Positions 27,319 to 54,043 of a DNA stretch of 64,000 nt are shown one piece after another. The translations under genes and the position numbers were made by a program. Within the stretch, counting starts at the first letter, position 1. Each line of letters starts with the position of its first letter. This DNA comes from a virus, in IMG/VR virus record IMGVR_UViG_3300005573_000006, positions 27,308-91,307 of that record; one strand, written 5' to 3'. The notes under the pieces were generated by a model that was not told where the DNA came from, made no database searches, and saw only the letters and a list, made by a program, of their open reading frames with translations.

Positions 27319-27753
27319 ATGACAAAATTTAAAATATACCCAGAAAAAGGAAACAAACAATATTATTCAGTAATAATATTTGACAAAAAAGCTGATATGA
27401 TAAAATATTCATGTGCCATAACAAAAAGACCGTTACATCTATTTGAGGCAGTAGCACATTCATATTACGCTTATTATAAAAGAAACAAAAAATATATATT
27501 GTCAAAGCAAATAGGAAGTATACTGTTTTATAAAAACGGATTTGGAGTAGGAACCGTTGCCCATGAAATAGCTCACGCAACCAATTACTATTTTAATAGA
27601 AAAAAGATAAAATTTAGAATTGGTAATGTTATAAAACCAACAAAACAATGGTTTAAATATGATGAAGCATACGCCCATATTTTAGGATATATGATAAATC
27701 AGTTTTGGAATAAATATAATGGTAAAGTAAAAACTAAATCAGAAAAATATTAA
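27319..27753 (+). CDS. Putative Zn metallopeptidase-like protein
   Basis: VAHEIAHA HExxH with a downstream DEAYA Glu ligand. Confidence 0.55.
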   Translation: MTKFKIYPEKGNKQYYSVIIFDKKADMIKYSCAITKRPLHLFEAVAHSYYAYYKRNKKYILSKQIGSILFYKNGFGVGTVAHEIAHATNYYFNRKKIKFRIGNVIKPTKQWFKYDEAYAHILGYMINQFWNKYNGKVKTKSEKY

Positions 27754-30700
27754 TGAAATTTACACATTTACATGTTCACTCAATGTACTCATTGCTTGAC
27801 GGACTACCAAGTCCGATTTCTTTAGTTGAAGAAACAAAAAAACTTGGAATGGATTCAATTGCCTTGACAGATCATGGAAATATGTATGGAGCAATAGAAT
27901 TTTACAAAGCCGCGAAAGCCAATGGTATAAAACCAATATTGGGTTGTGAAGTTTACATTACCAAAGATATGTTCAAAAAAAGCATTAAAGATGATAACCA
28001 AATTTATCACTTAACATTATTGGCCATGGACAATAATGGATATCATAATCTAATTAAGTTAGTTAGCGAATCAAACATTCATGGATTTTATTATAAACCA
28101 AGAATAGATTTTAATTTATTATCTAAATATAATGAAGGATTAATTTGTCTATCTGGATGTCTTGGAGGAGAATTGTCACAATTATTACTTTTAAAACAAT
28201 ATAGCGAAGCCGCTCAACTTGCCATAAAATATAAAAATCTATTTGGAGATAGATATTATATAGAAATAATGCGACACCCAAATAATAAAGATCAGTGCAT
28301 TGTTTCACCAGAACTTATTAAACTATCATCAATGTTAGATATACCAATGGTAGCCACAACAGATTTACACTACCTTCACAAAAAAGATATCGATACTCAT
28401 GAAGTATTTTTAGCTATTAATACAGGAAAAAACCTAGATAATAAAGATAGGCTTTCTATGAAAGATAGTGACATATTTCTTGCTTCACCAGAAGAAATGA
28501 TAAAAAAATTTAAAGACATACCCGAGGCAATAAATAATACACAAATAATTGCAGATAGATGTAATGTTGATATTAAACTTGGAGAAATAAAACTACCAAA
28601 ATTTAATGTGCCAAAAGGAGAGACGTATGATTCATATCTTAGAAAACTTTGTTTAAATAGCCCTAAAAACAAAAATGAATATTCAGATAGATTAGAATAT
28701 GAACTAAAAATTATTGAAAAAACAAAGTTTGCATCATATTTACTAATTGTTTGGGATATTATAAAATGGGCAAAAGAACATGATATAATGGTTGGCCCAG
28801 GACGTGGTTCTGCCGCAGGTAGTATAATATGTTATCTTTTGGATATTACAAATATAGATCCGTTAAAATATGGATTATTATTTGAACGTTTTATGAACCC
28901 AGATAGAATATCTATGCCAGATATAGATATGGATTTTGACGACACAAAAAGAGATGCGGTTATTAAATATGTGTCAGATAAATACGGACAAGATAATGTC
29001 GCCCAAATTATCACATTTGGCACAATGTTTTCAAGATCTGCAATAAGGGATGCCGGTAGGGCAATGAAATATGATCTTAAAACGTGTGATAGAATAGCCA
29101 AAATGATACCGTTCAATAGTTCATTAGCCGATTCGTTAAACAATGTTAAAGAACTAAAAAAAGAATATGAAGATCCAAAATCTAAAAAACTAATAGACAT
29201 GGCAATGAAACTAGAAGGAGTTGTTAGGCATGTCGGGAAACATGCTTGCGGAGTGATCATATCTGATAAACCAATAACCGATTATATGCCGATTCAGTTA
29301 TCAAAAGAAAAATCAGTAATGTCTCAATATGATATGAAGATTATTGAAGACCTGGGATTATTAAAAATGGATTTTCTTGGACTAAGAAACCTTTCGGTAA
29401 TTTCTGAATGTCAGAAACTAATAAAAAAACAACTTGGTGAAGATGTAAATGTAAACAATATTCCCTTAAATGACAAATTAACATACAAACTATTACAAGA
29501 AGCAAAAACAACTTCTGTGTTTCAACTTGAATCTGATGGAATGAAAAAATATCTAAAGAAATTAAAACCAACAAATATTGATGATATTTCGGTTCTTATA
29601 GCATTATACAGACCCGGTCCAATGAATTTAATACCAGAATATATAGCAAGAAAACACGGAGAAAAAACAATAACATATTTACATCCAAAACTTGAACCAA
29701 TACTAAAAGACACTTACGGTATTATGATATACCAAGAACAACTTATTTCGGCCGTTCAAGCATTAGCAGGCATGACATTGGCACAAGCAGATGTTTTAAG
29801 AAAAGCTGTTGCCAAAAAAGACGCTAAACTTTTGAAACAACAAGAATCTAAATTCAAAGACGGATGTAAACAAAATAAAATAAGTAACAATGTATCCAAC
29901 ACATTTTGGAACCTAATAGAACCGTTTATAGGATACGGATTTAATCGATCACATTCTACATCTTATGCCATAATAGGTTATCAAACAGCATATTTAAAAG
30001 CAAATTATCCGGTTCAATATATGGTGGCAGAAATGAATTCCGATGACAAAATAGAAAGAATAACCGAATTAATGCCAGAACTTGAAAGTATTGGTATAAA
30101 AATAGCCCCTCCGGATATTAATATAAGCGAACAAAAATTTGTCGGAACCGGTAATAAGATATTATTTTCTTTATCGGCCATAAAAGGAATGGGCAAGAAG
30201 GCCATAGAAACAATAATAGAAGAAAGAAAAAATGGGCCATATAAATCTATAGATGATTTTATTTACAGACTAAACGGAACATCTATTACCAAAAAAACAA
30301 TAGAAATCTTAGCAAAATCAGGGGCATTTGATACATTTGGTGAGTGGACTAAAAGAAATCAAATATCAAAGTCGGCAGAACAAATAGCAGAAAGTATAAA
30401 ATTTAAATATAAAGATTTACTTCCACCAATAATCTATTCAAGTGTTAAAACTTCATGGAAACAAATGGTATCTTGGGAAAAAGAACTACTTGGACTATAT
30501 TTAACCACAAATCCGGCGCTTAATTATGCCGTAGAGATAAAAAAACATGGAACCATAGACATAAACAGAATATCTGAATATCAAAATAAAAACATCAAAA
30601 TTGGCGGAGTAATTACCGATCTTAAAAAGATCATTCTAAAAAGTGGCAGAACCTTTTATAACTTTAGATTACAAGATACTACAGGATCAATAAACTTATC

Positions 30701-30818
30701 AATATCAAGCGGTTTATATAATAAAAAACCGTTCAGCACAAACTCTGTAGTAATTTTATACGGTCAATATAAAGATAAATTTAAAATATTTAGTTGCGAT
30801 CTAATAGATTCTTTTTAA
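27753..30818 (+). CDS. dnaE: DNA polymerase III alpha subunit
   Basis: HLHVHSMYSLLDG and ALTDHGN PHP domain; GRGSAAGS; PDIDMDF catalytic motif; KMDFLGL; GYGFNRSH; C-terminal OB fold. Confidence 0.97.
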   Translation: MKFTHLHVHSMYSLLDGLPSPISLVEETKKLGMDSIALTDHGNMYGAIEFYKAAKANGIKPILGCEVYITKDMFKKSIKDDNQIYHLTLLAMDNNGYHNLIKLVSESNIHGFYYKPRIDFNLLSKYNEGLICLSGCLGGELSQLLLLKQYSEAAQLAIKYKNLFGDRYYIEIMRHPNNKDQCIVSPELIKLSSMLDIPMVATTDLHYLHKKDIDTHEVFLAINTGKNLDNKDRLSMKDSDIFLASPEEMIKKFKDIPEAINNTQIIADRCNVDIKLGEIKLPKFNVPKGETYDSYLRKLCLNSPKNKNEYSDRLEYELKIIEKTKFASYLLIVWDIIKWAKEHDIMVGPGRGSAAGSIICYLLDITNIDPLKYGLLFERFMNPDRISMPDIDMDFDDTKRDAVIKYVSDKYGQDNVAQIITFGTMFSRSAIRDAGRAMKYDLKTCDRIAKMIPFNSSLADSLNNVKELKKEYEDPKSKKLIDMAMKLEGVVRHVGKHACGVIISDKPITDYMPIQLSKEKSVMSQYDMKIIEDLGLLKMDFLGLRNLSVISECQKLIKKQLGEDVNVNNIPLNDKLTYKLLQEAKTTSVFQLESDGMKKYLKKLKPTNIDDISVLIALYRPGPMNLIPEYIARKHGEKTITYLHPKLEPILKDTYGIMIYQEQLISAVQALAGMTLAQADVLRKAVAKKDAKLLKQQESKFKDGCKQNKISNNVSNTFWNLIEPFIGYGFNRSHSTSYAIIGYQTAYLKANYPVQYMVAEMNSDDKIERITELMPELESIGIKIAPPDINISEQKFVGTGNKILFSLSAIKGMGKKAIETIIEERKNGPYKSIDDFIYRLNGTSITKKTIEILAKSGAFDTFGEWTKRNQISKSAEQIAESIKFKYKDLLPPIIYSSVKTSWKQMVSWEKELLGLYLTTNPALNYAVEIKKHGTIDINRISEYQNKNIKIGGVITDLKKIILKSGRTFYNFRLQDTTGSINLSISSGLYNKKPFSTNSVVILYGQYKDKFKIFSCDLIDSF

Positions 30819-30822
30819 AAAA

Positions 30823-30900
30823 GGGGGACATTCTATAGCGGACTCAAGTGTCCTAGAATAATCCCCAAGGTTTCTTCCTGTCTCACGCGGGCGGAAGAAT
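30823..30900. terminator. Two hairpins at the convergence of dnaE and a small antisense ORF
   Basis: GGGGA.ATTCTA...TAGAAT..TCCCC and TTCTTCC...GGAAGAA inverted repeats. Confidence 0.5.
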
Positions 30901-30924
30901 ACTTCTATTATATCATAAGCATCA

Positions 30925-30981
30925 TTAGTTTACAAGATCATTACCGTTTGGGCAAATAATCGGAAACTTATGAAATATCAT
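30925..30981 (-). CDS. 18-aa peptide MIFHKFPIICPNGNDLVN
   Basis: Minus-strand TTGATA-N17-TATACT promoter with extended TG, then AGGAGGAGG Shine-Dalgarno 5 nt before the ATG. Confidence 0.5.
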   Translation of the reverse strand: MIFHKFPIICPNGNDLVN

Positions 30982-31133
30982 ATTGTCCTCCTCCTATAGT
31001 ATAGCATACATATACACAAGTATCAACCCCTCATCTTCATAAATTACCTAAAACATAAATTTTGTTCGGAAACAAGTTGTTTTTAAATTCCTTCCTTTTC
31101 TCCCAAACGGGGACATAACATTTCAAGCCTTTT

Positions 31134-31355
31134 GTCAAGACTTGTTTTTATCAACAAGTTGTCCACTTCCCCCGCTTGCATTGACTTCTTTTTTATGCTA
31201 TGCTTTGGTTAGGCAATGTTTTGGTTTCTTTACAAAACTTTAAGATATGTTATAACAACAACACACTTTTTATATATGTCAATAAAAAGTTGTCCACTTG
31301 CTTTGGTTTTTACTTTTTGCTATAATTAGATTAGTAAAGTAAAGTTGTCCACATC
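31134..31355 (+). promoter_or_regulatory. Tandem early promoters with three AGTTGTCCAC (DnaA-box-like) repeats
   Basis: TTGCAT-N17-TATGCT (31176-31204), TTGCTT-N17-TATAAT (31298-31326); AGTTGTCCAC at ~31157, 31288 and 31343. Confidence 0.7.
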
Positions 31356-31391
31356 TTTACTTTTAACAAAGATGTGGCGATGTTCATTAAA

Positions 31392-31415
31392 AACTCCATA
31401 AGCGGCGATGGGGTT
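31392..31415 (+). promoter_or_regulatory. 5' leader hairpin (loop AAGCGGCG) containing the SD-like GGGGT
   Basis: AACTCCAT/ATGGGGTT stem ending 5 nt before ATG 31421. Confidence 0.55.
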
Positions 31416-31420
31416 ATAAT

Positions 31421-31780
31421 ATGAGAACCATTAAAACAGCATTAAGATCGGGTTTTGTCAAGACGCAAGCAACAAGAGTCAGAAGCGGTTTTGTTAGGGA
31501 TATCCAAGATCTAGGTTTAGAGGTTGGAGGTGATCCTTGTGTTTTGACTGAAGAAGAGTTTCGAAGTTATGGCTTTTCTGAACGGACTATTAAGAATGGC
31601 CCAAGATATCTATTGAACAATAAAGCAAGCGAGAAAAGAGGCGAGTTTTATGCGGTAGCTCGTGGAGTTGCTACCGGTGAATTAGCTGAAGAGTTGCAAG
31701 TTCCTGAAAATACGCCGGTTATACAAATCGCTAGAGTTGCAACAAAAAAAGAGATCGGGACGCATTTTTTAACCGAGTAG
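31421..31780 (+). CDS. Hypothetical early protein (first gene after the promoter cluster)
   Basis: 119 aa, internal RSGFV repeat. Confidence 0.8.
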   Translation: MRTIKTALRSGFVKTQATRVRSGFVRDIQDLGLEVGGDPCVLTEEEFRSYGFSERTIKNGPRYLLNNKASEKRGEFYAVARGVATGELAEELQVPENTPVIQIARVATKKEIGTHFLTE

Positions 31781-31836
31781 ATATTCCGTAGCTATGAATT
31801 AAACGCCGCTATTCGTAGCTACTAGAATGTTTATTC
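31775..31836 (+). other. Long 3' hairpin, loop TAAACGCCGCT
   Basis: ~24-bp stem including the stop codon; loop complementary to 31401-31407. Confidence 0.65.
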
Positions 31837-31887
31837 TATTAACTCATCGGAGGTCGGGATGAGTTTTTGAACCAGTAAATTAAAAAC

Positions 31888-32052
31888 ATGGTCAAAATTG
31901 CTATTGAAAAATACAGTAAAAACTTATACCGTGGAATTGGAATTGTAAATGGATTACCGATTATAATTTTTGGAAGCAGTTTCATGAATGTCATTACAAA
32001 AGCCTTGTATGAATATATGAAAAGACGAGCATTTTTTACTGAAGAATGCTAG
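31888..32052 (+). CDS. Small hypothetical protein (54 aa)
   Basis: MVKIAIEKYSKNLYRGIG..., below the ORF-track length cutoff. Confidence 0.5.
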   Translation: MVKIAIEKYSKNLYRGIGIVNGLPIIIFGSSFMNVITKALYEYMKRRAFFTEEC

Positions 32053-32060
32053 TATAAATT

Positions 32061-32089
32061 GAAGGATCTTATTAAAGGTCCTTCTTTTA
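32061..32089 (+). terminator. Rho-independent terminator
   Basis: GAAGGATCT/AGGTCCTTC stem followed by a T tract. Confidence 0.6.
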
Positions 32090-32093
32090 TTAT

Positions 32094-32282
32094 ATGATCA
32101 AAATAAATAAGAAAATCGCACTTTTTGATAAACCAAAAGACATTTTAGAAGTTATTATGATCAAAAGAAAATATAGATTAAAAGAAATAAAAAAAGAAGG
32201 AAATATAATTACAAAAACATATATGAAGGGCCGGAGATATTGGAAAATAAGCTATCCAGATAACTATATTGGTCAAATATGA
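32094..32282 (+). CDS. Hypothetical protein
   Basis: ORF in the early-gene array. Confidence 0.55.
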   Translation: MIKINKKIALFDKPKDILEVIMIKRKYRLKEIKKEGNIITKTYMKGRRYWKISYPDNYIGQI

Positions 32283-32385
32283 AGATGATTATAGAATTAA
32301 CCGCACTTTTGCGGAGATTTAACCATTATTTGTATATATTATTCCATCAAAAAGACATATAGAAGAAAATAAGAAGGGGGGTATT

Positions 32386-32538
32386 ATGAATAAAAAGAAG
32401 AAGAAAAATAGACAGTATATAGCATGTATTTGGTGCGGAAAAGACATAAATAAGAAATATGCCAAATACTATTCAGATAAATGTAGAAGTGAAGCGTTGG
32501 GACAAAAGTTAGAAGGGAGGTGTTATTATGAGCAATAG
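32386..32538 (+). CDS. Small Zn-finger-like protein
   Basis: G-rich SD; CIWCG...YYSDKC. Confidence 0.5.
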   Translation: MNKKKKKNRQYIACIWCGKDINKKYAKYYSDKCRSEALGQKLEGRCYYEQ

Positions 32539-32779
32539 AGATAAAAGACCAAAAAGATCAAAATATATTAAGTGCCCGCTTTGCGGGGAGAAGTTAGACA
32601 GTATAATGGAATGGGTAAATACCACGATCGGATATGAAAGAGATTTAAAGACCGGAGATATTCTTCATACAAGAGAAGGAGATTATAGCGATTTTGAGGC
32701 TTATAGTTGCCCGGAATGCGGAGAAGATTTAGATGAAAAAACATGTAAAAAGATAAATAAAATGTTATGGGGTATTTAG
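32528..32779 (+). CDS. Zn-ribbon protein
   Basis: CPLCG...CPECG; GGAGGT SD. Confidence 0.75.
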   Translation: MSNRDKRPKRSKYIKCPLCGEKLDSIMEWVNTTIGYERDLKTGDILHTREGDYSDFEAYSCPECGEDLDEKTCKKINKMLWGI

Positions 32780-32793
32780 AAAGGAGGTGAAAT

Positions 32794-32988
32794 ATGAAAA
32801 AGCCAAAAGCCGTATTTGTAAAACAAAATAATGGAGGTTCGTATAAGTTAGAAATATATCTTGTGGAGAATGCCACGGATGAACAAAATGCATGGGTCGA
32901 TGCACAAGGAAAAATAGTATATGATTATGAATTAAATGGCGTTAAAGCCGATCTAAAAAAAGACGGATTTAATGTTGTTGTAAAATGA
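32794..32988 (+). CDS. Hypothetical protein
   Basis: AGGAGGTG SD. Confidence 0.7.
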   Translation: MKKPKAVFVKQNNGGSYKLEIYLVENATDEQNAWVDAQGKIVYDYELNGVKADLKKDGFNVVVK

Positions 32989-33161
32989 GACAATTAACAT
33001 CCGCACAAAAGAAGTTATTAGACAAAACATTGAAAAATAATCCAGAAATAAGAGAATGTGATGATTTACCAGATGAAGTTTGGGATATGATAGTAGAGCT
33101 TAATGATACCGAGATATTATATGATGAGGTTAATAAATATATCAGACAAAAAGATTTATAA
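32985..33161 (+). CDS. Small hypothetical protein (58 aa)
   Basis: ATGA overlap with the upstream stop; MRQLTSAQKKLL... Confidence 0.6.
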   Translation: MRQLTSAQKKLLDKTLKNNPEIRECDDLPDEVWDMIVELNDTEILYDEVNKYIRQKDL

Positions 33162-33211
33162 ATGAACTTTGATAACTGAATACATTTTAAGGAATATAGG
33201 GGCAAAATAAA

Positions 33212-33406
33212 ATGAGCAAAATATATTGTATTGAGCTAAGCAAGGATGAAGAATTAATGGCAGAAGATATGGGGTTAGAAGATTTTATAGAAACAGATGA
33301 AGATGAAAGAATCTTCTGCCGTAAATGCGGGAAGGATATAACAGATGAAGGATTATCAGAAGATATTTGCCGCAAATGTGGGCTAGAAATGGGGGTTTAT
33401 GACTAA
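33212..33406 (+). CDS. Acidic Zn-finger protein
   Basis: Two CRKCG motifs. Confidence 0.7.
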   Translation: MSKIYCIELSKDEELMAEDMGLEDFIETDEDERIFCRKCGKDITDEGLSEDICRKCGLEMGVYD

Positions 33407-33623
33407 AAAAGACTTTATTAAAATTGCGGAGATTATTAAGAGTATAATTGGACAACTTGGAAGAGTAAATGTTAAGACCGAAGATGGAAATACTATTGAA
33501 GATATATCCGAGTTTATTATTGATGAGTTTGCTTATGGTTTAGAAGATACAAATGAAAGGTTTGATGAAAATAAGTTCAGAAAATATATCTATAAAGATA
33601 ATAAGTATTACGAAGGTCAATAA
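33399..33623 (+). CDS. Hypothetical phage protein (MTKKDF...RFDENKF family)
   Basis: MTKKDFIKIAEII and NERFDENKF pattern seen in small early phage proteins. Confidence 0.7.
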   Translation: MTKKDFIKIAEIIKSIIGQLGRVNVKTEDGNTIEDISEFIIDEFAYGLEDTNERFDENKFRKYIYKDNKYYEGQ

Positions 33624-33804
33624 TATGGTTTAATAGTTCCTATACTTTAAGATGTATTCAGTAATTAGTGTTTATTATGAAGATATTATTTATATTTTTA
33701 GTTATACTATCCGCCATTTTTGTGTGGACATTCTATAATATATTTTGGGTTTCTGATATTCGGAATATATGTTTGCCAAGAATGGAAGATTGTAGTAAAT
33801 AAAT

Positions 33805-33963
33805 ATGAAAAACCAAAAAAAGACAAATAAACATAAAAACCAGCGAAAAAAAATGACAGAAGAGTTTTATGAGGGCAAAGAAACTTTATGCGGAAATTGT
33901 GGACGAATAGCAACATGGAAGTATGGAGATATTCATAGATGTAATAAATGTATGGGACTATGA
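33805..33963 (+). CDS. Small Zn-finger protein
   Basis: CGNCG...CNKC. Confidence 0.5.
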   Translation: MKNQKKTNKHKNQRKKMTEEFYEGKETLCGNCGRIATWKYGDIHRCNKCMGL

Positions 33964-34151
33964 CACATAAAAAAGAATGGACAATAAATATAATACTAAT
34001 TATTTTATCATTTATAATAGTTTTTGGGTTTCTCAAATGGCAAATAGAAGAAAATAAGGGATTTTGTTTAAAGATTATGAGCGGATATTTTATGTCAACT
34101 AATAAAGATTTAGAAGAGTACCAAAAATATATGAAATATTATAATAAATAG
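33960..34151 (+). CDS. Small membrane protein
   Basis: Hydrophobic segment INIILIILSFIIVFGFL; ATGA overlap. Confidence 0.6.
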   Translation: MTHKKEWTINIILIILSFIIVFGFLKWQIEENKGFCLKIMSGYFMSTNKDLEEYQKYMKYYNK

Positions 34152-34165
34152 AAAGGAGGTGAAAT

Positions 34166-34339
34166 ATGAAAAAATATAGTGTTTCTTGGAGTGAAAAACA
34201 TACATTGCCGGGTATAGAAGCGAATTCTCCAGAAGAGGCAATAGAAAAAGTCCAAAACGGAGAAATAACGGAAGAGTCCGAGAATGGAGATGTTATTGAG
34301 CTAGTTGATGGGCCCGAGGCCGTAGAAGAAGGTATATAA
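34166..34339 (+). CDS. Small acidic protein (EAxSxEEA motif)
   Basis: AGGAGGTG SD; IEANSPEEAIEKV. Confidence 0.7.
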   Translation: MKKYSVSWSEKHTLPGIEANSPEEAIEKVQNGEITEESENGDVIELVDGPEAVEEGI

Positions 34340-34341
34340 TA

Positions 34342-34359
34342 ACACAAGCGGCCATGTGT
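34342..34359 (+). promoter_or_regulatory. 5' leader hairpin, loop AGCGGCCA
   Basis: ACACA/TGTGT stem ending 10 nt before ATG 34370. Confidence 0.5.
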
Positions 34360-34369
34360 ATTTTTACAA

Positions 34370-34624
34370 ATGAAAACAGTCCGTTTTAAGATAGCAGATG
34401 TATTTGAAGTAGAAGTAGAAAACGATGCAACACAAGACGAAATAGACGCAGCAGTTGATGCGGAACTAAAAAAATTAGCAGAAGCCCCATTTTTTCTGGA
34501 AAATGCAGAAGTTGAGTTTGTAGACGAAGAAGAAAATGAAGAAGAAAATTACGAAGATTTATCAGTCGAAGACCTAGATGAAAATTCCTCAGAAGAGAAT
34601 TTAGAAGAAGATACAGAGGAATAA
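34370..34624 (+). CDS. Highly acidic small protein
   Basis: 84 aa with a Glu/Asp-rich C-terminal tail. Confidence 0.8.
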   Translation: MKTVRFKIADVFEVEVENDATQDEIDAAVDAELKKLAEAPFFLENAEVEFVDEEENEEENYEDLSVEDLDENSSEENLEEDTEE

Positions 34625-34627
34625 ATT

Positions 34628-34676
34628 ACCGTGAGTTGCCATGATATTTGGCCGCATGTCGTGGCAACAATTCGGT
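34628..34676 (+). other. Long 3' hairpin, loop TTTGGCCGCA
   Basis: GTTGCCATGATA/TGTCGTGGCAAC stem; loop complementary to 34348-34354. Confidence 0.65.
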
Positions 34677-34689
34677 TATTTATTATAAT

Positions 34690-35262
34690 ATGAAAAAGGT
34701 TCATAATAAAATAGAAAAAAATATAATGGAAAAAGAATTTGTTTGTAACCGGATGCCTATTTGTGCAGTGGCCGGATATGTAATAGCAAAAAGAGCCAAA
34801 TATAATGATAATTTATCAAAATCATTGGGAATGGCATTGGCCACTAAATTAGCAATTTGGAAGAATGCCGGATGGGGATACGGAGTTTCAACGAATAAAC
34901 ATTATGGAGCCGGAAGAGTAAGTGAACAACAATTATCTAATGAAGATAAATTAAATGCCGGTTTAGTTGATGAAATAGATTTTTGTGGTGAAAACTTTTT
35001 GGTAAAAGACAATTTAGTAGTGGGAGAACTACATGTAAAAAAAGAATTTAATTGTTCACCAGATAAATTTGATTTTCAAGTCCATAAAATAGAAAGCGGT
35101 GGTGGTAATTTTAAGAAGTTAGTAGAAGCAATCAATGAAAAATTAGATAGTGAAGAGTGGAAAAATTATGATTTAAGCAAGGCGGTATTTGGTAAATCTT
35201 TTATGAGATTTTGGAAACAAATTAGAGATGACTTTCGTAAAACAGAATTTTATCATGAATAA
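34690..35262 (+). CDS. Hypothetical protein
   Basis: Likely start 34690 or 34726. Confidence 0.75.
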   Translation: MKKVHNKIEKNIMEKEFVCNRMPICAVAGYVIAKRAKYNDNLSKSLGMALATKLAIWKNAGWGYGVSTNKHYGAGRVSEQQLSNEDKLNAGLVDEIDFCGENFLVKDNLVVGELHVKKEFNCSPDKFDFQVHKIESGGGNFKKLVEAINEKLDSEEWKNYDLSKAVFGKSFMRFWKQIRDDFRKTEFYHE

Positions 35263-38386: not shown

Positions 38387-38461
38387 TGAGCTGTAAATTA
38401 AAAAGTATATAAAATAACACAAATCGCCCTTTTGTCAAGAATAGAAGAAGAAATAAAAGAT

Positions 38462-38530
38462 CGCGGCTTGGTGTAATGGTAACACGTGAGGTTCATATCC
38501 TCAAGATCACGTTCAAATCGTGGGCCGCAA
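38462..38530 (+). tRNA. tRNA-Met (CAT), initiator-like C1:A72 mismatch, short T-stem, no encoded CCA
   Basis: Acceptor CGCGGCT/GGCCGCA, D-arm GTGT-AATGGTA-ACAC, anticodon arm TGAGG-TTCATAT-CCTCA, T-arm CACG-TTCAAAT-CGTG. Confidence 0.85.
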
Positions 38531-38539
38531 CATCAAATA

Positions 38540-46462: not shown

Positions 46463-47143
46463 ATGAATACAGAAGAAACATTAAAACAATTTATTTACAT
46501 ATTAGTAAAATCTAATGATATAAACTTTTTAACAATAAAAGGACAACCTGGTTTGGGTAAAAGTTTTAATACAGCAAGAATATTAAAAGAAATGGGACTT
46601 GAAGAAAATGTCCATTTTAAAGTAATAAGTGGTTATATAACACCCAAAAAGTTATTTGAAACATTGGGGAAAACAAGAATATTAGAACCACCACGACTTA
46701 TAATAATAGATGATTTAGATGCTCTTCTAAATAGCAAAATATCTGTTTCAATATTAAAAAGTGCATTAGTTAATTTTAATAACCAAAGAATAGTAAGATA
46801 TGAATCAACAAGAAATAATGAAGAACAATCATTTGAATTTAATGGAAAAATAATAATGATTGTAAATCAAATACCTTCTTCTTCTGGAATAGAGCCACTT
46901 TTGGATAGGGGAATAGTTTTTTATTATAAATTTAACCCGATAGAACTAATGTCTTATATTGAAGAATTTGTATTACCAACATATGGATTAGAAAAGCAAG
47001 CAACTTATAAAGTATGGAATAAAGTAAAAAGATTTGTTGATAGTCCATCGTTTTCAATTAGAGATTTAAATAGGGCAATAAATTTTTATAAACATGATCA
47101 AAATAAATGGTTTGAACTTTTTATAAAATCTATTAAAAAATAA
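46463..47143 (+). CDS. AAA+ / P-loop ATPase
   Basis: GQPGLGKS Walker A, LIIIDD Walker B, LLDR arginine finger, SIR sensor. Confidence 0.85.
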   Translation: MNTEETLKQFIYILVKSNDINFLTIKGQPGLGKSFNTARILKEMGLEENVHFKVISGYITPKKLFETLGKTRILEPPRLIIIDDLDALLNSKISVSILKSALVNFNNQRIVRYESTRNNEEQSFEFNGKIIMIVNQIPSSSGIEPLLDRGIVFYYKFNPIELMSYIEEFVLPTYGLEKQATYKVWNKVKRFVDSPSFSIRDLNRAINFYKHDQNKWFELFIKSIKK

Positions 47144-52087: not shown

Positions 52088-52199
52088 ATTTTAGCATATT
52101 TTAAGACAAAAAGCAATAGCTAGTTGTCCACAGATGAATTCGCTAAAATAAAGCTGTGGGCAAGTGGCTATTGAAATAGATCTGTTTTTATGCTATACT
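52088..52199. promoter_or_regulatory. Back-to-back promoters, each with its own DnaA-box-like element
   Basis: Minus CTGTGGACAACT-N5-TTGCTT-N17-TAAAAT; plus CTGTGGGCAAGT-N5-TTGAAA-N17-TATACT. Confidence 0.75.
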
Positions 52200-53516: not shown

Positions 53517-53538
53517 TAAAGTGAAAGGAGGTGAGAAT

Positions 53539-53958
53539 ATGTTAAAAGATTTAGTAAGTTTTGATCCTTTTAAAGAAACCGAAAGATTGTTTGAAGATTT
53601 CTTTACGGGATTCAACTTCTATCCCGCATCACGTCGAGTTCCAGTAAATGCTTATCAGACAGATAATGACTGCATAGTCGAAGTGTATGCACCCAATCTG
53701 AAGGTTGAAGATATTAATGTTTCGGTTACAGATGGGGTTCTAAAAATAGAAGGAAGTTCTGTCAAGGAGAAATCTGAAGAAGGAAAACAATACTATCGTC
53801 GGGAGATGAACTGCGGTAGTTTTGTTAGAACCATTGTACTTCCCGCGGAAGTTAAAGAAAATGAAGCTGAAGCGAAGTATAAAAATGGAGTTTTAACAAT
53901 AAGGTTTCCGAAGAAGGAACAAGTTAAGGCAAAACAAATAAAGGTTTTAGCCGAATAA
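53539..53958 (+). CDS. Small heat-shock protein (Hsp20)
   Basis: DPF...F N-terminus, YRRE...GSFVRTIVLP, AKYKNGVLTI..PK, IKV C-terminal motif; AGGAGGTG SD. Confidence 0.95.
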   Translation: MLKDLVSFDPFKETERLFEDFFTGFNFYPASRRVPVNAYQTDNDCIVEVYAPNLKVEDINVSVTDGVLKIEGSSVKEKSEEGKQYYRREMNCGSFVRTIVLPAEVKENEAEAKYKNGVLTIRFPKKEQVKAKQIKVLAE

Positions 53959-53997: not shown

Positions 53998-54043
53998 CTG
54001 TGGACAACTCCCTATTGTATTGTTTTTATTTTTGTGCTATACT
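53998..54043 (+). promoter_or_regulatory. Box-coupled promoter
   Basis: CTGTGGACAACT-N5-TTGTAT-N17-TATACT. Confidence 0.75.

Follow-up and report, generated by a model that had tools for sequence, protein, structure and literature searches.

Hairpin loops with matched seven-base sequences bracket single small genes in a lineage of uncultured phages

Base pairing between the two ends of one messenger RNA (mRNA) is, to our knowledge, known in bacteria for a few chromosomal genes only, and bacterial kissing loops are found mainly between separate RNAs. Here we describe two small genes, units 1 and 2, in a virus sequence from metagenomic DNA, each set between a start-proximal (5′) and a stop-proximal (3′) hairpin element with exactly complementary 7-mers. 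The window analysed, 64,000 nucleotides (nt) long, comprises bases 27308–91307 of the 91,307-bp IMG/VR virus record IMGVR_UViG_3300005573_000006; all positions are window positions, and all elements described lie on the plus strand unless stated otherwise. Several classes of RNA offer points of comparison. The loop–loop antisense systems ColE1 RNA I/II, CopA/CopT and RNAIII–mRNA form Watson–Crick helices of 6–7 bp with partners in trans. In plant RNA viruses, 3′ cap-independent translation elements (CITEs) of the barley yellow dwarf virus (BYDV) and tombusvirus types kiss a 5′ hairpin through 5–7 complementary, covarying loop bases and so bring the 3′ end to the start; they deliver eukaryotic initiation factors on uncapped genomes, whereas the phage units belong to prokaryotic mRNAs and contain no conserved factor-binding motif. 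In the hok mRNA of plasmid R1, the tac/fbi fold-back closes the 5′ end on the 3′ end and keeps the full-length mRNA stable and translationally inert. That mRNA encodes a type I toxin, has an antisense RNA and undergoes 3′ trimming, whereas the phage open reading frames (ORFs) do not encode small hydrophobic toxins and no antisense RNA is evident.

The nearest likeness is to bacterial mRNAs in which pairing at the start region controls repression or decay. In the icaR mRNA of Staphylococcus aureus (PMC3868564), the 5′ and 3′ untranslated regions (UTRs) pair intramolecularly across the whole ORF, at the translation start region. There, a linear anti-Shine–Dalgarno (anti-SD) sequence, UCCCCUG, forms a duplex with the SD sequence and recruits RNase III, whereas the phage units would pair loop to loop, without a conserved SD and with a sequence specific to each unit. 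The ends of the short, highly structured hbs mRNA of Bacillus subtilis also pair, and its stability is coupled with translation (PMC5737220); that pairing conceals a 5′-UTR site for RNase Y, does not join two apical loops by kissing and does not recur from gene to gene. Long-range pairing to the ribosome-binding site in B. subtilis (PMC12697547) is a further precedent. As far as the account in which it is cited goes (PMC11979758), OxyS–fhlA provides the precedent for kissing at a start region, with a 6–7 bp loop–loop helix between a start-region partner and the loop of a stable terminal hairpin; those are separate RNAs acting in trans, whereas both phage loops stand on the same cistron. Finally, the promoter early stem-loop (PeSL) cassettes of T4-type phages (PMC2839356, PMC4122927) also frame small accessory early genes with stem-loops and show modular gain and loss, as repeated, sequence-conserved DNA motifs that promote recombination; the phage frames have no such repeat, and their RNA complementarity is pair-specific. 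In view of icaR, hbs and OxyS–fhlA, the statement in an initial annotation of this DNA that no equivalent was known around single phage cistrons was too sweeping, as far as the sources go; in the literature searched we found no description of loop–loop frames around single cistrons of a double-stranded DNA phage.

In unit 1, the start-proximal hairpin (31392–31415) is formed by the arms AACTCCAT and ATGGGGTT, with 8 bp including one G–U pair, and closes the 8-nt loop AAGCGGCG. It ends 5 nt before the ATG at 31421, and the A-rich single strand UUAAAAA lies directly 5′ of it. The ORF (31421–31780, stop codon TAG at 31778–31780) encodes 119 amino acids (aa). As judged from folds, the stop-proximal hairpin (31775–31836) has ∼24 bp and the loop TAAACGCCGCT (31800–31810); it consists of a 12-bp upper stem (31788–31799 with 31811–31822), a one-base bulge and a lower stem of 8–12 bp that contains the stop codon. 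The 7-mers AGCGGCG (31401–31407, in the 5′ loop) and CGCCGCT (31804–31810, in the 3′ loop) are exact complements, and CGCCGCT occurs only once in the whole window. Both hairpins appear in the minimum free energy (MFE) and centroid folds of a 511-nt region. The partition function of the putative unit 1 transcript gives stem pair probabilities of 0.74–0.88 for the 5′ hairpin and 0.9–1.0 for the 3′ hairpin, with both 7-mers 0.86–1.0 unpaired. The coordinates, loops and complementarity reported by the initial annotation are thus confirmed.

Relatives of this gene are very rare, with two homologues of the 119-aa protein among 5.8 billion proteins (79% and 68% aa identity). A metagenome scan provided contig L059, which holds the whole gene at 68% aa identity with 111 nt of 3′ flank, and contig L060, which holds the 5′ part only. 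The covariation set consists of these two contigs and the window, leaving out a 981-nt contig of the 79% homologue and further contigs with identical protein. In L059 and L060 the 5′ hairpin has the arms AACATTAT and ATAATGTT around the loop AAACAGCG and ends 5–7 nt before the homologous ATG; the 3′ hairpin of L059 again has a 12-bp upper stem, with the 11-nt loop TAAACGCTGTT. From the window to L059, the kissing helix changes from AGCGGCG/CGCCGCU to AACAGCG/CGCUGUU with 7/7 pairs kept, by two double changes, both from G:C to A:U, in a comparison of two sequences for this helix. The stems behave in the same way: the 5′ stem remains fully paired in the relatives (8/8, with three double changes), as does the 3′ upper stem in L059 (12/12, with six double changes and one G–U change). 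When the 3′ partners were slid by 1–3 columns as controls, 32–53% of the cells were paired, and none of 500 shuffles reached the covariation score. Since 37 of the 83 codons for conserved residues differ synonymously between the window and L059, neutral divergence is high and unconstrained bases would have drifted; by simple counting, the sole two changes in the 11-nt loop would turn out to be the complementary ones about once in 500 cases. Contigs from the two source samples over the units comprised the source contig only, without variants or joints at the loops, although contigs drop rare forms. The loop complementarity put forward for checking in an orthologous locus is therefore kept in L059. 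A further proposal, that the 5′ hairpin buries the only SD-like sequence, GGGGT, was not borne out by the relatives, since the orthologues have AUAAUGUU in that arm and no SD-like sequence. Because SD-like sequences are rare upstream of the predicted starts of this phage and absent in the orthologues, SD burial is not the conserved point.

L059 contains a further gene with the same arrangement. Between the promoter region and the unit 1 orthologue it carries an extra 70-aa ORF (2091–2303 of the contig) that is unrelated to unit 1. The 5′ hairpin of this insert, with arms AGUUGU and ACAAUU and a 14-nt loop beginning GUGAUUG, ends 5 nt before the AUG. Its 3′ hairpin, of 25 bp, starts from the stop codon and has the 8-nt loop UCAAUCAC, which contains CAAUCAC, the exact complement of GUGAUUG; the chance of this match is about 0.005 from base composition. 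Positions 2091–2366 of L059 make up the complete framed gene, and the corresponding places in the window (31330–31390) and in L060 (1880–1935) hold a leader hairpin only. As L059 has a whole extra framed gene, framed genes are gained or lost as complete cassettes.

The layout also recurs in the window itself, around unit 2. This ORF (34370–34624) encodes a very acidic protein of 84 aa for which no homologue was found. Its start-proximal element (34342–34359) has a 5-bp stem, ACACA with UGUGU, around AGCGGCCA, with −3.9 kcal/mol in isolation, and ends 10 nt before the ATG at 34370; the 7-mer GCGGCCA (34348–34354) lies 15 nt before that ATG. The stop-proximal hairpin (34622–34682) has ∼22 bp with a 13-bp upper stem and the 8-nt loop UUGGCCGC, which contains the complementary 7-mer TGGCCGC (34649–34655), and the stop codon TAA (34622–34624) lies within its lower stem. 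The unit 2 layout is confirmed in part, its predicted 5′ partner being uncertain (see below).

How often would such matches occur by chance within this genome? The answer depends on composition. Loop–loop or flank complementarity of 6–10 nt, taken without a composition filter, is common in the AT-rich genome and was not enriched over matched controls (the same, reversed or complemented words). We then scored complementary 7-mers with at least six G or C between each gene's own −45 to +3 flank and the flank from its stop codon to +65, with non-cognate flank pairs as the null. Such GC-rich cognate matches were found for two of 122 genes, exactly units 1 and 2, against three of 14,762 non-cognate flank pairs (2e-4); by this rate 0.025 cases are expected (Poisson P = 3e-4). 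Hence the genome-wide scan suggested in the initial annotation is positive for the GC-rich cognate matches and negative for generic ones; loop matching is a feature of two genes and not a genome-wide system. Three AT-rich loop-to-flank candidates (genes at −22160 to −21396, 46463–47143 and 53521–53958) were rejected for their low-complexity words and for a 5′ word outside the start-proximal loop. By duplex energies, the cognate loop pairs are the most stable combinations, and the matches extend beyond their cores by information-bearing bases: unit 1 adds A..G opposite C..T, and unit 2 adds CA opposite TG.

Taken over all units, the layout is found around three non-homologous genes with four different 7-mer pairs. 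Exact 7-nt complements flank the same cistron in unit 1, unit 2, the L059 orthologue and the L059 insert, a property shared with the icaR and hbs type, and in the folds both tracts lie in apical loops of forming hairpins in unit 1 and both L059 units. UUAAAAA precedes three of the four 5′ hairpins. No conserved flank sequence is repeated across the units: stems and loops differ, the 5-nt core being common to this phage's two units only, no motif is common to the four 3′ hairpins, and no Rfam family was matched. Because the four loop pairs have no common sequence, a common trans partner such as a protein, ribosomal RNA or recombinase is unlikely. The stems contain 15 G–U pairs, and every long hairpin folds better in sense than in antisense (−20.0 versus −13.9, −25.1 versus −18.0 for unit 2, and −21.7 versus −13.3 kcal/mol). 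Since the G–U pairs favour the sense fold, action is indicated at the level of sense-strand RNA, and the positions of the elements are tied to the start and stop codons.

We conclude from these comparisons that selection maintains pairing on the sense RNA in both hairpins and in the loop–loop helix, and that the two mRNA ends of each framed gene most likely pair. The pairing of the apical loops as RNA, which the initial annotation had put forward, is upheld by the two double compensatory changes in L059 and by the separately matched 7-mers of unit 2 and the L059 insert. The roles suggested along with it, namely ribosome recycling, full-length-only translation and excision or circularisation, are conjectural. 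With respect to the systems described above, the paired 7-mers lie in a loop and do not cover an SD sequence as in icaR; the phage frame is not of the icaR type, nor is it a 3′ CITE, a hok-type fold-back or a PeSL cassette. By analogy, it would come closest to a kissing-loop antisense system that acts in cis and is joined to a 5′/3′-UTR interaction.

What would such a contact do? The reading that we favour, by analogy and with somewhat less than even confidence, is a per-cistron lock on translation and stability, formed by a kissing contact in cis and carried on movable early-gene cassettes. Each module would consist, in order, of an A-rich single strand, a hairpin ending 5–10 nt before the AUG, an ORF of 70–126 aa and a ∼24-bp hairpin that starts from the stop codon. 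The 3′-most 7 nt of the 5′ loop would pair in cis with the 3′-most 7 nt of the 3′ loop, so that the cistron becomes a closed loop of RNA. Taken as a simple duplex at 37°C, the kissing helix has about −8 to −13 kcal/mol, compared with −4 to −9 kcal/mol for the 5′ hairpins and −13 to −26 kcal/mol for the 3′ hairpins. Because the 5′ hairpins are weak alone and would lie within the expected 30S footprint, the strong 3′ hairpin, once transcribed, may hold the start-proximal hairpin shut and so reduce re-initiation. In that case translation would be mainly co-transcriptional, or would take place while ribosomes hold the structure open; closure would be opposed by ribosomes that initiate or that terminate in the lower stem. 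A waiting 30S subunit could use the A-rich strand as its standby site, and the closed form may shield the small mRNA from nucleases.

Several points weigh against this reading. The sign of the effect, repression or activation, is drawn from geometry and analogy only, and hairpins ending 5–10 nt 5′ of an AUG are not always a block to initiation. For the kissing helix, covariation was scored with a single full orthologue, as L060 has no 3′ end. The cores GCGGC and GCCGC differ at the central base only, and this quasi-palindromic GCSGC makes complementarity of the core by itself less surprising; as the core is common to units 1 and 2, GCGGC:GCCGC also allows cross-pairing between them at about −10 kcal/mol. 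The 5′ hairpin of unit 2 is missing from the context fold, where GCGGCC instead pairs with GGCCGU (34318–34323), a predicted local competitor (MFE and partition function) inside the end of the upstream ORF. Of the recurrence of the layout with a different sequence at 34342–34676, as first described, the layout itself stands; the sequence is not wholly different, given the common core, and the 5′ hairpin is weak and out-competed.

An alternative, which we consider unlikely, is that the elements serve RNA processing or decay. The 3′ hairpins would be RNase III-type signals as in T7 early mRNA, cutting cistrons from longer transcripts, and the kissing complex would be a stacked RNase III substrate or would protect both ends from exonucleases. 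T7-type RNase III signals are resembled by the 20–25 bp interrupted stems, and the four 3′ hairpins are uniform in their folds, with interruptions ∼12–13 bp from the loop, a likeness in shape only. Unit 2 and the L059 insert also lie in polycistronic contexts with no promoter of their own. In addition, RNase III acts on the 5′/3′-UTR duplex of icaR (PMC3868564), and the 5′/3′ pairing of hbs protects against RNase Y (PMC5737220). Against this, processing by itself leaves the covariation unexplained, since a matching 5′ loop is not required by RNase III.

The same kissing contact could also have the opposite sign: with the stop codon held beside the start, each short cistron would be re-initiated by its own terminating ribosomes or 30S subunits. 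Such a device would be the prokaryotic counterpart of closed-loop or 3′-CITE logic, useful where SD pairing is little used, and SD-like sequences are indeed infrequent in this phage and wanting in the orthologues. The stop codon is always where the 3′ hairpin begins, and the distance from the end of the 5′ hairpin to the AUG is fixed at 5–10 nt; by this geometry a terminating ribosome would melt the lower stem only, leaving the upper stem and loop in place. All the framed ORFs are short, and engineered circular mRNAs raise expression in bacteria (PMC13563091). Stop-to-start hand-over fits the geometry as well as the lock does. However, we found no bacterial precedent for hand-over through a kissing loop, and hairpins that lie within the 30S footprint are inhibitory more often than not; we regard re-initiation as rather improbable.

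Sequence alone does not separate pairing in cis from pairing in trans. The 3′ hairpin, with or without a terminator, might accumulate as a 3′-UTR-derived small RNA that kisses other copies of the mRNA and gives dose-dependent negative feedback. OxyS, in the account cited above, uses the loop of a stable terminal hairpin for kissing at start regions, and hairpin and terminator-like features are present at the 3′ end of unit 1 (see below). Nevertheless, the cis partner would be at a far higher local concentration, and no separate promoter or processing site was identified for such an RNA, which makes action in trans distinctly doubtful.

It is very unlikely that the elements act as DNA, with 7-bp inverted repeats on extruded or single-stranded hairpins that mark cassette borders or serve replication or recombination. 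The extra framed gene of L059, placed between the promoter region and the unit 1 orthologue, does behave like a cassette, and the region adjoins DnaA-box-like repeats. On the other hand, the G–U pairs make the structures specific to the sense strand, their positions follow the start and stop codons, inverted repeats invert a segment rather than excise it, and 7-mers that differ between units provide no single recombinase site; the lack of joints at the loops in the source-sample contigs adds a weak argument, as contigs drop rare forms. Finally, chance complementarity between unrelated hairpin loops, for which the abundance of unenriched generic matches and the near-identity of GCGGC and GCCGC might speak, has a negligible probability in the face of the two GC-rich cognate matches (P = 3e-4), the two double compensatory changes and the third, unrelated framed gene in L059.

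Turning to its surroundings, unit 1 looks like a small transcription unit of its own, because a promoter-like motif and a 10-bp leader hairpin lie upstream. A DnaA-box-like sequence, AGTTGTCCAC, adjoins TTGCTT-17 nt-TATAAT at 31288–31327, read from the sequence as the probable unit 1 promoter, with a transcription start near 31335. The L060 orthologue is preceded by the same arrangement (AGTTGTCCAC-TTGCAA-17-TATACT). The first 5′-UTR hairpin (31349–31377) has a 10-bp stem, CCACATCTTT/AAAGATGTGG, with a leader fold z of −3.6; it is present in L060 and absent in L059, which has a different upstream context. Downstream, a terminator-like hairpin with the arms AACTCATC and GATGAGTT and a 9-nt loop, followed by TTTTT (31841–31870), may terminate transcription, judging from its fold; a consensus terminator scan did not call it, as the loop exceeds 8 nt. 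U-rich, interrupted tails also lie behind the 3′ hairpins of unit 1 and the L059 orthologue, and the scan called neither. TATAAT stands directly before the ATG of unit 1 (31416–31423) and of the gene after unit 2 (34684–34692; ATG 34690), perhaps by coincidence in AT-rich DNA.

The AGTTGTCCAC element resembles the DnaA box (TTGTCCACA type). Five exact copies are present in the window (31157–31166, 31288–31297, 31343–31352 and 52122–52131 on the plus strand, 54000–54009 on the minus strand), and copies are found in L059 (1777, 2039) and L060 (1697, 1829). It is above chance in the window, with nine matches at no more than one mismatch against 1.8 expected. Three copies fall within 200 bp, inside the 600 nt that separate unit 1 from the polymerase gene; copies lie just 5′ of −35-like hexamers, an arrangement conserved in L059 and L060. 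The copies could mark a cluster of early promoters under DnaA control, or else an origin.

The source record carries direct terminal repeats and has a GC content of ∼31%. Two sequencing runs contain the locus, both hot-spring metagenomes and neither an RNA run, and these are probably the source samples of the phage. The virion genes lie on the minus strand; a DnaE-type polymerase gene (27753–30818) is followed by a block of small plus-strand ORFs, with the units at its head. The closest polymerase relatives among GenBank phages and IMG/VR have ∼40–47% identity, the best GenBank phages ∼41–43% aa identity. The unit 1 region had neither a DNA nor a protein match in GenBank phages, the unit 1 and unit 2 proteins had no relative in IMG/VR, and GTDB genomes gave no relative. 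Among 57 distant polymerase relatives in IMG/VR, framed genes were not above expectation. The unit 1 protein had no significant Pfam or PHROG match, a UTRA match being below threshold, and its AlphaFold2 (AF2) model, of medium confidence with a predicted local distance difference test (pLDDT) score of 67, had no fold match; a helix-turn-helix considered for this protein was dropped, as the model places a strand there. For the small ORFs neighbouring the units, weak zinc-ribbon matches were the sole yield, and an Rfam search of 30700–35000 gave nothing meaningful.

Three further features of this part of the genome may be mentioned. Directly after the polymerase stop codon, ∼80 nt (30819–30900; L059 1415–1495) are near-identical in L059 despite strongly diverged coding DNA. 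This segment folds as two hairpins, GGGACATT..AGTGTCCT and TTCTTCC..GGAAGAA, has no Rfam match and could represent a pair of conserved terminators or else a small RNA. An 18-mer from it matched 12 unrelated GTDB genomes, about the number expected by chance, and was rejected as a lead; 19-mer and 18-mer patterns had no match in viral contigs. Secondly, within 32148–32278 (about 32175–32224), a ∼40-nt stretch occurs at 80–88% identity in many other contigs of both hot-spring runs, and the summed depth over the same region rises from about 20–42 to 137–174; this has the look of a short motif that several organisms or phages in the sample have in common. Thirdly, a tRNA-Met (CAT) at 38461–38531 may be either an initiator or an elongator: like bacterial initiator tRNA, it is readable with a C1–A72 mismatch and with A73 as discriminator, and it has just two G:C pairs beside the anticodon loop. 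The idea that the GCGGC/GCCGC core is related to the acceptor stem of this tRNA was dropped, as the L059 loops do not have that core.

Returning to the frames, we think it improbable that cistron-bracketing kissing loops form a general, undescribed expression module of uncultured phages, a portable cassette in which the stop of short early genes would be tied to their start for re-initiation or gating without SD pairing. What the comparison does provide is a phage lineage that frames at least three unrelated small early genes with matched loop pairs, each with a 7-base sequence of its own. Should the contact gate or boost translation, it would provide a control element that is compact, portable and sequence-programmable, for hosts that use little SD pairing, and it would then be relevant to the way in which the expression of phage accessory genes is kept independent of their genomic surroundings.

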